DNA of 5,804 nucleotides, from positions 1 through 5,804 of the IMG/VR virus record IMGVR_UViG_2690316296_000004, one strand, 5' to 3'. A program made the translations under genes and the position numbers. The notes under the pieces were generated by a model that saw only the letters and a program-made list of their open reading frames with translations, was not told the origin of the DNA and made no database searches. The stretch is from a virus (taxonomy: Duplodnaviria > Heunggongvirae > Uroviricota > Caudoviricetes). Below are positions 2,446-5,804 of the stretch, piece by piece. Position 1 is the first letter of the stretch, and each line of letters begins with the position of its first letter.

Positions 2446-2676
2446 ATGCTTAAAACTGACGCTCTTTTGTATTTCGGTTCAAAAACAAAACTTGCACAAG
2501 CAGCAGGTATTCGTTTGGCTTCGCTTTATAGCTGGAAAGGGGATTTAGTTCCCGAAGGTCGCGCGATGCGTCTACAGGAGGCATCTGGCGGGGAGCTTCA
2601 GTATGATCCCAAAGTTTATGATGAATATCGTAAGACGAAGCGGGCGGGGCGGTTGAACAATGAAAATCACTCCTGA
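2446..2676 (+). CDS. dicC: DicC, Cro-like small regulator (76 aa)
   Basis: Track ORF MLKTDALLYFGSKTKLAQAAGIRLASLYSWKGDLVPEGRAMRLQEASGGELQYDPKVYDEYRKTKRAGRLNNENHS, which matches DicC as I recall it. Divergent from dicA, SD AAGGTG. Confidence 0.9.
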   Translation: MLKTDALLYFGSKTKLAQAAGIRLASLYSWKGDLVPEGRAMRLQEASGGELQYDPKVYDEYRKTKRAGRLNNENHS

Positions 2677-3181
2677 ACAGGCTCGTGAGGCTCTGGATGC
2701 CTGGATATGTCGACCAGGAATGACACAGGAGCAGGCGACGATATTAATCACTGAAGCATTCTGGGCTTTGAAAGAGCGCCCGAACATCGATGTTCAGCGT
2801 GTCACAGATGAAGGTGGCGCGGTTGATCAGCGAGCGCTTGGCGTTAATCGAGTGAAGATATTCGAACGCTGGAAGGCTATCGACACCAGGGATAAGCGTG
2901 AAAAGTTCACGGCGCTAGTGCCTGCGATTATGGAGGCTATCCGGATTAGTGATTTCAGGTTGTATCGTGAGATCAGTGATGGAAAAAGTATTACGTACAT
3001 GATCGCCGGGTTAAATAAAGAATATGGCGATGTGGTGGAATCCGGACTGCTTTTTGCAGATCCTGCCGTTGTAGATCGTGAAACTGACGAACTTATAGAA
3101 AAAGCAATTGCTTTCAAGCTTGCGTATCGACAGCAATACCAACAAAAAGCTGGATGGAATTATGAGTCTTCTTTTTGCTGA
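2660..3181 (+). CDS. Putative CII-like / YdaT-family early regulator (173 aa), first gene after the Cro-like gene
   Basis: Track ORF. ATG at 2660 overlaps the dicC 3' end by 17 nt. G-rich SD (GGGCGGGGCGG) 7 nt upstream. Family assignment rests on position (cro-proximal, before the replication gene) and a vague resemblance to YdaT-type proteins; not verified. Confidence 0.7.
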   Translation: MKITPEQAREALDAWICRPGMTQEQATILITEAFWALKERPNIDVQRVTDEGGAVDQRALGVNRVKIFERWKAIDTRDKREKFTALVPAIMEAIRISDFRLYREISDGKSITYMIAGLNKEYGDVVESGLLFADPAVVDRETDELIEKAIAFKLAYRQQYQQKAGWNYESSFC

Positions 3182-4127
3182 ACGCCCACTGGTTATAAAC
3201 ACGCAGCTGGCAATGAAAATCGGCTTAAACGAAGCCATTGTTTTGCAACAACTGCACTACTGGTTGAGAGATACCAACTCCGGTATGGAATGTGATGGTG
3301 TTCGCTGGATTTATAACACAACGGAACAATGGCTGGAACAGTTCCCATTCTGGTCAGAGTCAACGTTAAAGCGCGCGTTTGCAAGTCTGAAAACGCTGGG
3401 GCTTTTGCGTTGTGAAAAGCTCAATAAATCAAAGCGCGATATGACCAATTTCTACACGATCAACTATGGGAGCGAGCTTTTAGATGGTGGCAAATTGAAC
3501 GAATCCATCGGTTCAAAATGCGCCGCTCCATCAGGTCAAAATGACACGATGGAAGAGGTCAAAATGAAACGCTCCATTGGTTCAAAACGATCCAATGTCA
3601 TCGGGTCAAAATGGCCTGATGATCTTACAGAGAATACAACAGAGATTACTACAGAGAATAAAAACACTTTTCGTCCGGAAGCTTCGCAACCGAACCCGCA
3701 GACGACTGAACAGGATTTTTTAACCCGGAACTCCGACGCGGTTGTGTTTAGTGCGAAAAAACGCCAGTGGGGTAGCAGGGAGGATTTGGCGTGTGCGCAG
3801 TGGATCTGGGGGCGGATCGTGGGTCTCTACGAACAGGCAGCCAGTGATGATGGCGAGATCATGCGACCAAAAGAGCCTAACTGGACTGCCTGGGCCAATG
3901 ACGTGCGCACAATGCGGATGCTGGATGGCAGAAGCCACAGACAAATTTGCGAAATGTTTGGTCGGGTTCAGCGAGATCCATTCTGGGTAAAAAACATCAT
4001 GAGCCCGTCAAAGCTCCGCGAAAAATGGGACGAACTGGTCATCCGCCTGGGACGTTCACCTGTACAGCGTTGTGTTAATCATATTTCTGAACCGGATACA
4101 GAAATTCCGCCTGGTTTCAGAGGATAA
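3162..4127 (+). CDS. Phage replication initiation protein (321 aa from ATG 3162): N-terminal winged-helix replisome-organizer-like domain, central low-complexity linker, C-terminal DnaT-like domain
   Basis: Track ORF 3108..4127 opens with TTG and no SD. I prefer ATG 3162 (MSLLFAERPLVINTQLAMKIGLNEAIV...), which overlaps the upstream gene by 20 nt. N-terminal FWSESTLKRAFASLKTLGLL resembles replisome-organizer HTH proteins. An iteron array lies inside the gene. The C-terminal region resembles DnaT C-terminal-like domains from memory. Confidence 0.82.
   Translation: MSLLFAERPLVINTQLAMKIGLNEAIVLQQLHYWLRDTNSGMECDGVRWIYNTTEQWLEQFPFWSESTLKRAFASLKTLGLLRCEKLNKSKRDMTNFYTINYGSELLDGGKLNESIGSKCAAPSGQNDTMEEVKMKRSIGSKRSNVIGSKWPDDLTENTTEITTENKNTFRPEASQPNPQTTEQDFLTRNSDAVVFSAKKRQWGSREDLACAQWIWGRIVGLYEQAASDDGEIMRPKEPNWTAWANDVRTMRMLDGRSHRQICEMFGRVQRDPFWVKNIMSPSKLREKWDELVIRLGRSPVQRCVNHISEPDTEIPPGFRG
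3505..3613. repeat. Iteron array (probable prophage replication origin): five direct repeats of about 15 bp with core GGT(T)CAAAA(T/C)G at roughly 22-25 bp spacing
   Basis: Repeats at about 3505-3520, 3528-3543, 3556-3566, 3574-3589 and 3599-3613, followed by an A/T-rich stretch with three ACAGAGA(A/T)T repeats (3625-3662). Analogous to ori-lambda lying inside gene O. Confidence 0.6.
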
Positions 4128-4167
4128 GTGTTGATTTCAGGTCATGAGGTAATTTTAAGGGGGACTT

Positions 4168-4623
4168 GTGGCAAAAGTTTTTACACAAGAAGAGCGGGAA
4201 AAAATTAAAGGGCAGGTGGTGGAACTCGTGCGCCAGAGCGGTCGTGAGACGTTACGGCAACTGGAAGCTAAAACAGGTGCGACTAGATATCTGATGAGCG
4301 TTCTTGCCAGAGAGCTGGTAGCCAGTGGCGATGTATACAACTCCGGCTACGGGTTATTCCCGTCTGAACAGGCGCGTAAGGACTGGCAAAACGCCCGCAA
4401 AAAACTCTCGAGGGCAAAGGTGAAGAAACCTGCTGTGGTTGATCCGGACCTTATCTGGTCATTACCTGACGGAGAAATACGTCGCTACGACAGTCGTCTA
4501 AACATAATCTGTCGCGAGTGCCGGAAGAGCGAAGTGATGCAACGCATACTGGCGTTTTATCAGGGAAATGTTCAGCATTTTGAAGTAACGATATTAAAGT
4601 GCATTAGTTCAAATGTGAAATGA
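4168..4623 (+). CDS. Hypothetical prophage protein (151 aa); possible winged-helix N-terminus and a C-terminal CxxC pair (ICRECRK)
   Basis: Track ORF with GTG start at 4168, preceded by a strong SD AGGGGG (4158-4163). Starts 40 nt after the replication gene. Function not recognised. Confidence 0.7.
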   Translation: MAKVFTQEEREKIKGQVVELVRQSGRETLRQLEAKTGATRYLMSVLARELVASGDVYNSGYGLFPSEQARKDWQNARKKLSRAKVKKPAVVDPDLIWSLPDGEIRRYDSRLNIICRECRKSEVMQRILAFYQGNVQHFEVTILKCISSNVK

Positions 4624-4914: not shown

Positions 4915-5742
4915 ATGTCCCAGTACGACAAAGCCACGCAAACAGCAGGTTTAGTACGCATAACTAATCAATTAGAGTCTATATACGGAACTTTTATTGA
5001 TATGAAAGATATTAATTCCGTAGGAGAGCATAGGAAAGAAACTCTAATTACACGCTGTGTAGCTGCGCATGCAATCAGCTTGTATGGTGATGAACCAGAC
5101 CCTGAGTTAGCTGCTAATGCTGTCTGCGATGGAAAAGATGATGGCGGGATAGATGCAGTTTATGTTAATAAAAATTCGAGAAAGATAGTAATAGTTCAGT
5201 CAAAATATATTAAAAATGGCGACGGTTCTATAACCACAAGAGAATTCGGAAGATTCAAAGACGCATGCGCAAAAGTAATAGCCAGCGACTTTACAACATT
5301 TAACGAAAGGTTTTTAAGAAACAAAGACTCCATAATTGAAGCAATCTCAGGATTTACATATAAATGTATATGTGTATTTATATATACAGGGGTTCATGAG
5401 CCAAGCGAAGAAGTAAAATCAGACATAGAGTTTTGGGAAAAGGTTCAGAATCGGTCTCTATTATTTAAAGATATAGAGAATAGAGATGAGTATTCAGTGC
5501 TATTCGAGCCGGCAGGTATACAAGTGATAATGGATGGTCTTTCTAATGATCGATCAAAATCTATAAATGTTAGCAATGTTCACCTTGAAAGTTATGGAGA
5601 GATAGCAGAACCTTATAAAGCAATATACGGAACAATATCCGCAAGGATCCTATACGACTGGTGGGAAAAGTACAAGTACTCTCTGTTCGAGAAAAATATA
5701 AGAATGATCTTACCCAGCAATAGTGGACACGCGGCTAAGTGA
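4915..5742 (+). CDS. PD-(D/E)xK-type (Mrr-cat/AIPR-N-like) putative nuclease, 275 aa; candidate anti-phage defence or abortive-infection effector in an AT-rich moron
   Basis: Track ORF. SD AGGAG (4902-4906) 8 nt before the ATG. Motif CDGKDDGGIDAVYV...KIVIVQSKYIK (residues 71-100) fits the GxD / (E/Q)xK pattern of the restriction-endonuclease-like fold. Rare codons ATA/AGA are frequent and G+C is markedly lower than in the flanking phage genes. Confidence 0.8.
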   Translation: MSQYDKATQTAGLVRITNQLESIYGTFIDMKDINSVGEHRKETLITRCVAAHAISLYGDEPDPELAANAVCDGKDDGGIDAVYVNKNSRKIVIVQSKYIKNGDGSITTREFGRFKDACAKVIASDFTTFNERFLRNKDSIIEAISGFTYKCICVFIYTGVHEPSEEVKSDIEFWEKVQNRSLLFKDIENRDEYSVLFEPAGIQVIMDGLSNDRSKSINVSNVHLESYGEIAEPYKAIYGTISARILYDWWEKYKYSLFEKNIRMILPSNSGHAAK

Positions 5743-5769
5743 GTAAACTCTCAGTCAGAGGTGACTCAC

Positions 5770-5804
5770 ATGACAAAAACAGTATCAACCAGTAAAAAAC
5801 CCCG
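5770..5804 (+). CDS. Start of a second gene of the accessory operon (MTKTVSTSKKP...), truncated by the window edge
   Basis: ATG at 5770, 27 nt after the stop of the 275-aa gene, with SD AGAGGTGA (5757-5764) 5 nt upstream. Only 11 codons visible. Confidence 0.45.
   Translation, partial: MTKTVSTSKKP

Follow-up and report, generated by a model that had tools for sequence, protein, structure and literature searches.

Prophage origins of replication that lie inside a gene are represented, in the literature we found, only by work on phage lambda and on the Stx (Shiga toxin) phages. In lambda, ori occupies the middle of the initiator gene O, where dyad-symmetric iterons with an A-rich centre recur 20-24 bp apart and are directly followed by a stretch of low duplex stability; in the early-right operon the gene itself is preceded by cro and cII-like genes. 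Stx phages are lambdoid E. coli prophages that likewise keep their origin inside O, and a biochemical study describes their replication regions as highly similar to that of lambda (PMC7466680). Here we analyse a locus of the same layout in the IMG/VR record IMGVR_UViG_2690316296_000004, namely a window of 5,804 nt (the whole stretch of DNA considered, over which all positions are numbered) that covers the immunity and early-right region of an E. coli prophage. A gene for an O-like initiator of 321 aa carries a 23-bp iteron array in its middle, followed by three copies of the 12-mer ACAGAGAWTACW.

Plasmids and the bacterial chromosome provide further points of comparison. In RepA_N plasmids of Gram-positive bacteria the iterons are located in the middle portion of the rep gene, and the initiator's C-terminal domain is DnaD-like. 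Both oriC and the iteron plasmids of the RK2 type possess repeated A/T-rich 13-mers beside the initiator sites, conserved in sequence as well as in composition.

Our comparisons suggest, with a probability of roughly 85%, that the array and the 12-mers together form the origin from which a DicA/Qin-type lambdoid prophage replicates vegetatively, placed inside the stretch of the gene that encodes the initiator's linker. An origin of this type is in itself ordinary; the unexpected part is the near-invariance of the 12-mer block across many bacterial phyla.

An iteron array and a 12-mer block in the middle of the initiator gene

An earlier reading of the window from its letters alone (the sequence-only reading) had reported five direct repeats every 22-25 bp inside the coding sequence. 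We find five 23-nt direct repeats at 3506-3621, all within the open reading frame (ORF) of the initiator, with start-to-start distances of 23, 23, 23 and 24, preceded by a degenerate copy in the same register (Table 1). The array is recovered independently by Tandem Repeats Finder with a period of 23. Over 3483-3621 the period-23 self-match amounts to 0.55, about 11 standard deviations (sd) above 2000 shuffles (mean 0.33, sd 0.02, maximum 0.42), and this is the top period-23 score among all 139-nt stretches of the window (maximum outside the array 0.46). The iteron is a near-palindrome, CATCgGGTCA-AAA-TGaCCcGATG, whose arms are complementary at 8 of 10 positions in copies 2, 4 and 5. Taken literally, GGTYCAAAAYG matches only three copies at one mismatch or fewer, since the extra T is missing from two copies, which read GGTCAAAATG; this agrees with the optional T in the core previously given as GGT(T)CAAAA.

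Five bp separate iteron 5 from the 12-mer block, whose units are, in order, ACAGAGAATACA, ACAGAGATTACT and ACAGAGAATAAA. These three units correspond to what had been described as an A/T-rich stretch with three short repeats that encodes the linker of the protein. Within the initiator gene, duplex stability is lowest over the segment 3622-3670 (31% G+C; z about 1.9), and the block lies at 0.48 of the gene length (family median 0.52). In the AlphaFold 2 (AF2) model, residues 108-175, encoded by the repeat region (nt 3483-3686), form a disordered linker with a predicted local distance difference test score (pLDDT) of about 24. The parallel once drawn with lambda is also justified, since the lambda record annotates four iterons inside O with an A-rich stretch next to them, which is the same layout.

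Two other functions were considered for this region and rejected. The stretch 3100-4200 has no sigma-70-like sites, and a promoter function for the repeats was dismissed on this ground. A reading of the array as an RNA element was also discarded, as DicF is the sole Rfam match in the window and lies far from the array.

Selection at the DNA level

The repeat region is translated and the encoded stretch is of low complexity and predicted to be disordered, so the repeats might be a tandem peptide linker (SIGSK..., TENT/TEIT) whose likeness in DNA is a by-product of recent duplication. It would fit such a linker that the 12-mers always stand in the T-E-x-T frame, and that 192 of 205 distinct contexts of the block fall within ORFs of at least 150 aa in this frame. 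The reading frames of the iterons contradict it, however. A period of 23 cannot be divided by 3, and the cores of copies 0-5 are found in frames 0, 2, 1, 0, 2 and 2 (GGKLN, GSKCA, SGQND, EVKMK, GSKRS and GSKWP, respectively); the 23-bp period puts the core in all three frames, and the array is therefore a repeat of DNA and not of peptide.

Synonymous sites contradict a peptide repeat as well. For this comparison we pooled the window with 8 homologues of 68-77% identity in the N-terminal domain (N-domain) and counted identical codons at conserved residues. The same codon is kept at 87% of such residues in the iterons (170/195) and at 97% in the 12-mers (83/86), against 44% (269/606) in the N-domain and 43% (167/389) in the C-terminal domain (C-domain), and the contrast between repeats and flanks is present in each single pair. 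The sequence-only reading had proposed an alignment that would reveal conservation of the DNA beyond the coding constraint, and on these numbers the outcome is positive. Hence both the iterons and the 12-mers are under selection at the DNA level.

An unbiased codon scan points in the same direction. The peptide T-E-[N/I/K]-T-T-E-[N/I/K]-T was back-translated with full degeneracy for a search of viral contigs, and 137 of the 142 matches shared the single spelling ACAGAGAWTACWACAGAGAWTAC; in the same genes outside the block, GAG accounts for 38% of Glu codons and ACA for 28% of Thr codons. Moreover, the Bacillus amyloliquefaciens plasmid pBSG3 (NC_014104, locus 720-845) carries three CCTACAGGGAAA at 23-bp spacing and then three ACAGAGATTACT upstream of its rep gene. 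Iterons and 12-mers occur here with a T-E-x-T frame of only 88 codons and no encoded N-domain, which argues further against a linker peptide as the object of selection. Elements of the same type are also found in several 8.4-kb plasmids of B. velezensis. Taken as a whole, a protein-level explanation of the repeats is hardly credible.

Iteron cores and the N-terminal domain

Across 75 initiators with an N-domain of the window type, the iteron sequence co-varies with this domain. The core is GGTCAAAATG where the N-domain identity is at least 70%; GGGCAAATTGCCC, GGACAATTTGTCC and GGTCAACTTGTCCC are found at about 60%, ATGACAAAATGGCAG at 47% and GTGATCAATCTGCGCAC at 38%. The 23-bp register is retained across all of these diverged cores. 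For instance, the Staphylococcus aureus phage fPfSau02, whose N-domain is 46-49% identical to that of the window (46% by BLASTP), possesses three GGTCAAAATG units at 23-bp spacing. Its nucleotide identity with the window is 51% in the N-domain and 85% in the iterons, and its C-domain is of the DnaD type instead of lambda-O-like. The shift of the core along with the N-domain and the conservation of the iterons in fPfSau02 make up the pattern expected of a protein and its binding sites. Together with the synonymous constraint and the lambda-like layout, this co-variation lends comparative support to the earlier proposal that the array belongs to a prophage origin.

The 12-mer block across phages and phyla

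A blastn search with 3480-3680 detected the block, at 85-100% identity, in initiator genes of Bacillus, Staphylococcus, Acinetobacter, Xanthomonas, Erwinia, Klebsiella and Stx phages. Apart from the block, such genes differ from that of the window in their iterons and in both protein domains. The DNA of the block is near-invariant in more than 200 distinct initiator genes, and in the 205 distinct contexts mentioned above it stands mid-gene (median ORF length 316 aa). It is composed of 2-6 units, usually three; positions 1-7, 9 and 10 are at least 95% fixed and position 11 is C in 86%, in a position matrix that is biased because two exact units had served to select the loci.

The block is accompanied by periodic DNA on its 5' side. 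Among 173 loci, the best period within the 120 bp upstream falls between 21 and 24 bp in 159 and is exactly 23 bp in 120; 86% of the loci exceed the 99th percentile of control windows for upstream periodicity. A periodic array is located upstream of the block in 85% and downstream in 2%. The window fits this grouping, with three in-register ACAGAGAWTACW units mid-gene and its period-23 array directly 5'.

This one-sided coupling bears on the possibility that the initiator binds the array as operators or titration sites, serving autoregulation, copy control or incompatibility, with the true start of replication elsewhere. Sites inside the gene could indeed block its own transcription, and plasmid and lambda iterons are reported to titrate as well (the 'inhibition phenotype'; PMC3349717). 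A titration role and an origin role are not mutually exclusive. The array is always coupled directly, and on one side only, to a conserved block of low stability, and therefore has the anatomy of an origin, that is, binding sites plus an unwinding element. Moreover, repeat and period scans showed no other iteron array or A/T-rich origin candidate elsewhere in the window. A purely regulatory array with an origin at another site seems quite unlikely to us.

The full signature, i.e. the block plus the upstream array, was present in 97 of the 120 species-level genome matches listed. By record titles, the hosts among these matches belong to Gamma- and Alphaproteobacteria, Campylobacterota, Bacilli, Clostridia and Negativicutes, with one cyanobacterium, and to Chloroflexota, Fibrobacterota and Nitrospinota in the form of metagenome-assembled genomes (MAGs). 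Coding repeats of the D-Y-N-R and D-Y-Y-G types in Nostocales, an archaeal MAG and a giant-virus contig have no array and were dropped from this range. Unrelated coding repeats of this kind match the 23-nt pattern, and the motif alone is therefore not diagnostic without the 21-24-bp array. The block is nearly absent from plasmids: a plasmid search with a natural 201-nt query returned it in 25 records, mostly of about 40 kb or of chromosome size.

A Candidatus Gracilibacteria MAG has the block (around 1575-1680 of the locus) preceded by a strong array of 27-bp period (self-match 0.68). The T-E-x-T frame is open there for only 75 codons under table 11, but this lineage reads UGA as Gly, so that the choice of genetic code may account for the shortness of the ORF.

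Around the constant block the iterons, the initiator domains and the means of helicase delivery all vary (DnaC-like loader, own DnaB, lambda P or none). The C-domains that follow it include Phg_2220_C, DUF6017, DnaD-type, DnaA_N and DnaT, the DnaT DNA-binding domain PF17948 being present in 2 of 86 related initiators. The next gene encodes a DnaC/IstB-like protein in 13 cases, a DnaB helicase in 8-9, lambda P in 6 and G39P in 1, or none of these. That the block stays constant amid such neighbours would imply a reader common to all systems. Candidates for this reader would be a conserved second, single-strand-binding face of the winged-helix initiators and a near-universal host replication protein, and the block may serve as a general site of helicase entry or priming.

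Homology between otherwise unrelated initiators starts or stops at the block. The matches of Klebsiella phages end at query positions 496-499, and the Stx-phage initiators share with the window only 40 bp at 97.5% identity (window 3621-3662; Stx locus 1501-1552). In the Stx initiator LC567818 the block directly follows the phage's own 23-bp-spaced repeats; its iterons (GGGAAACCC..TTTCG) and its N- and C-domains differ from those of the window, and helicase genes lie downstream. Homologues with the window-type N-domain likewise carry unrelated C-domains after the block, which is therefore also a junction between the module of N-domain plus iterons and the module of the C-domain.

These breakpoints, exactly at the block, together with the exchange of C-domains behind the same N-domain, could mean that the 12-mers are kept mainly as a patch of homology for swapping the two modules and play no part in unwinding. 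Evolvability is only weakly selected for, however, and such selection would not keep 10 of 12 positions at least 95% fixed across phyla in loci with a G+C content of 0.28-0.59. Neither the one-sided position beside the iterons nor the 2-6 repeated units would be needed in a patch for recombination alone, and any conserved functional element can be expected to attract a breakpoint. We consider a mere patch for recombination quite unlikely.

We tentatively propose, at somewhat less than even odds, that ACAGAGAWTACW in 2-6 copies is an undescribed sequence-specific origin element of a very large superfamily of temperate phages with initiator-embedded origins, whose hosts span Pseudomonadota, Campylobacterota, Bacillota, Cyanobacteriota, Chloroflexota, Fibrobacterota and Nitrospinota. 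A literature search by sequence for the 12-mer, its peptides and the iteron cores yielded unrelated primers and oligonucleotides only and no paper containing the motif, although its coverage of subscription journals is weak and absence there is not proof. DNA motifs that stay almost invariant across phyla while their neighbours evolve freely are rare, and the block is one of them. In combination with the 23-bp array it provides a marker, readable from sequence only, of both initiator and origin in many prophages of E. coli and beyond. If the duplex does open, or the helicase enter, at the block, this would be a shared sequence-dependent step in the initiation of phage replication; such a step would be approachable in mEp460, HannyBb and PhiR42_1 and might find use in origin prediction and vector design.

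The initiator protein and a possible mechanism

The sequence-only reading had called the gene a replication initiator, and profile and pairwise comparisons confirm this. From residue 17 to residue 321 the protein aligns with positions 11-298 of the 298 in the profile PHROG 391, 'replication initiation O-like', at E=1.5e-91, and its C-domain is homologous to that of lambda O (BLASTP, 34% identity over the 153 residues 142-294, E=7e-27). No Pfam family matches the 321-aa protein at E<=0.01.

The AF2 model was used solely to support a layout of winged helix, disordered linker and helical domain. Residues 14-101 of the N-domain are modelled as helix-helix-strand-helix-helix-hairpin (pLDDT about 60-76). 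All of the best PDB matches of this domain in Foldseek are winged-helix proteins, led by the N-domain of staphylococcal plasmid RepA (5kbj, 4pql and 4pt7), at weak E values of about 0.07-0.2. RepA_N initiators (pSK41/pTZ2162 RepA) thus provide the best fold matches as well as the same two-domain plan, and some phage relatives of the window initiator share the DnaD-type C-domain with them (DnaB_2; fPfSau02). In contrast, the window initiator has no match to Pfam RepA_N (PF06970), its C-domain is lambda-O-like, and the plasmids nearly lack the 12-mer block.

The C-terminus of the protein, unlike that of lambda O, is a tail resembling the end of E. coli DnaT (Table 1). It is also matched by phmmer to the DnaT PDB chains 2ru8, 6aep and 9zbt and to positions 160-179 of the NCBIfam DnaT model. 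DnaT itself shares only this 20-residue tail, and PF17948 is not detected in the window initiator. The C-domain of DnaT docks on PriA and forms filaments on single-stranded DNA according to a 2026 structure paper (PMC13377028); in the literature found on this domain no specific role is described for its last 20 residues. That the tail replaces P is thus something we infer, because no described function of the tail itself was found. With this tail a phage initiator that lacks a loader gene may mimic a host protein of the restart primosome, which suggests a route by which a lambdoid phage could dispense with P.

No helicase loader or lambda-P-like partner is found in the window, where the next gene is DUF977/Ren-like by Pfam and PHROG. 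The order of an O-like gene and then a Ren-like/LygF gene is common to HannyBb, PhiR42_1 and mEp460_ev081, and the early region of HannyBb has no annotated helicase or loader (P, DnaC-like or DnaB-like). The replication module is the initiator alone, without a P, DnaC-like or DnaB-like gene downstream.

A mechanism along the following lines would account for these features. Dimers of the predicted winged-helix N-domain would bind the iterons and build an O-some-like complex, which would strain and open the adjoining 12-mer block. The C-domain and the DnaT-like tail would then bring host DnaB/DnaC to the opened DNA, either directly or via the PriA/PriB/DnaT restart machinery, and so substitute for lambda P. 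Transcription from a promoter on the cro side would presumably cross the origin, as in lambda.

Some differences from lambda are nevertheless clear. The lambda iterons are annotated as 18-bp units (ATCCCTCAAAACGAGGGA), whereas those of the window are contiguous and 23 bp long. In place of three exact 12-mers, lambda has an A-rich stretch with a single degenerate unit, TCAGAGAATTCT; homology between this stretch and the block is only marginally supported, as 2.6% of shuffles at least equal its local score of 22, and is not claimed. P directly follows O in lambda, whereas the window, PhiR42_1, mEp460_ev081 and HannyBb have no P. The putative origin would work like the lambda ori, but its N-domain and the lack of P place it outside the O-P module. 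Its likeness to the 13-mers of oriC and RK2 is functional only, as the sequences differ; the window 12-mers are translated and conserved across phyla, whereas the 13-mers are conserved within one replicon family.

Several points weigh against interpreting the locus as an origin. In the literature searched we found no experimental binding, unwinding or origin activity for this initiator family, and delivery of DnaB without a loader is purely conjectural. The N-domain has neither BLASTP similarity to lambda O nor a match to Pfam Phage_rep_O, although remote homology is possible. The segment 3622-3670 is not the least stable of the whole window, the A+T content of the 12-mer block is only 69%, and the dyad symmetry is poor in copies 0, 1 and 3 (arm complementarity 5-6/10). 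Confidence in the AF2 model of the initiator is low, with a mean pLDDT of 55, and its fold matches are weak too. Finally, the Fisher P values of the pooled codon test are inflated because the 8 homologues are related to one another.

Prophage context and neighbouring genes

The prophage of the window is a lambdoid one of the DicA/Qin type, identified by DicF together with the dicA, dicC and dicB-like genes (Table 1). Qin of E. coli K-12 has the same immunity genes, and its dicC is followed by ydfX/ydfW remnants in place of the cII-like and initiator genes. The contrast that had been drawn with the degraded K-12 Qin is hence correct. The accompanying claim of an intact replication module stands for the initiator gene, which is whole and 96-99% identical to the copies in the phage genome records PhiR42_1, HannyBb and mEp460_ev081; 'intact' covers this gene only.

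The initiator ATG overlaps the end of the cII/YdaT-like gene by 20 nt, and coding sequences with identical limits are annotated in PhiR42_1 and mEp460_ev081. Of 5426 complete E. coli genomes, 2797 carry the gene and 1848 of these have it at full length; it is annotated as 'hypothetical protein' among the E. coli RefSeq records listed. Some database entries (e.g. one of 448 aa) fuse the initiator with the upstream YdaT/cII-like gene.

Table 1. Features of the 5,804-nt window
Feature	Position (nt)	Strand	Remarks
Iteron 0, degenerate	3483-3505		GATGGTGGCAAATTGAACGAATC; core GGCAAATTG; in 23-bp register; arms 5/10 complementary
Iteron 1	3506-3528		CATCGGTTCAAAATGCGCCGCTC
Iteron 2	3529-3551		CATCAGGTCAAAATGACACGATG; arms 8/10; block 85% identical in S. 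aureus phage fPfSau02
Iteron 3	3552-3574		GAAGAGGTCAAAATGAAACGCTC
Iteron 4	3575-3597		CATTGGTTCAAAACGATCCAATG; arms 8/10; inverted repeat
Iteron 5	3599-3621		CATCGGGTCAAAATGGCCTGATG; arms 8/10; adjoins A/T-rich block; best-conserved copy among homologues
Three 12-mers ACAGAGAWTACW	3627-3662	plus	proposed unwinding or helicase-entry element; encode TENTTEITTENK
O-like replication initiator gene	3162-4127	plus	321 aa; PHROG 391
N-terminal domain coding region	3162-3482	plus	residues 1-107; predicted winged-helix iteron binder (AF2, Foldseek)
Helical C-terminal domain coding region	3708-4046	plus	residues 183-295; lambda O homology; AF2 helices, pLDDT 64-83
DnaT-like tail	4065-4124	plus	last 20 residues, 302-321, QRCVNHISEPDTEIPPGFRG; 70% identity to E. 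coli DnaT residues 160-179
dicB-like and ydfABC-like ORFs		minus	
DicF small RNA	861-912	minus	Rfam RF00039, full-length match, 76.7 bits
dicA repressor gene	1955-2362	minus	
dicC/cro	2446-2676	plus	
cII/YdaT-like gene	2660-3181	plus	
DUF977/'Ren-like' gene	4168-4623	plus	Pfam DUF977, E=1.7e-29; PHROG 142; occupies the position of lambda P
AIPR-family (abortive-infection-like) gene	4915-5742	plus	interrupted by IS3 at 5705
IS3 left end	5705-5804		TGATCTTACCCAGC...; includes start of first IS3 ORF, MTKTVSTSKKP

The IS3 insertion lies 1.6 kb downstream of the initiator gene and calls for caution as to the viability of the prophage as a whole. In genomes without this insertion, the matches to the window end at 5704.

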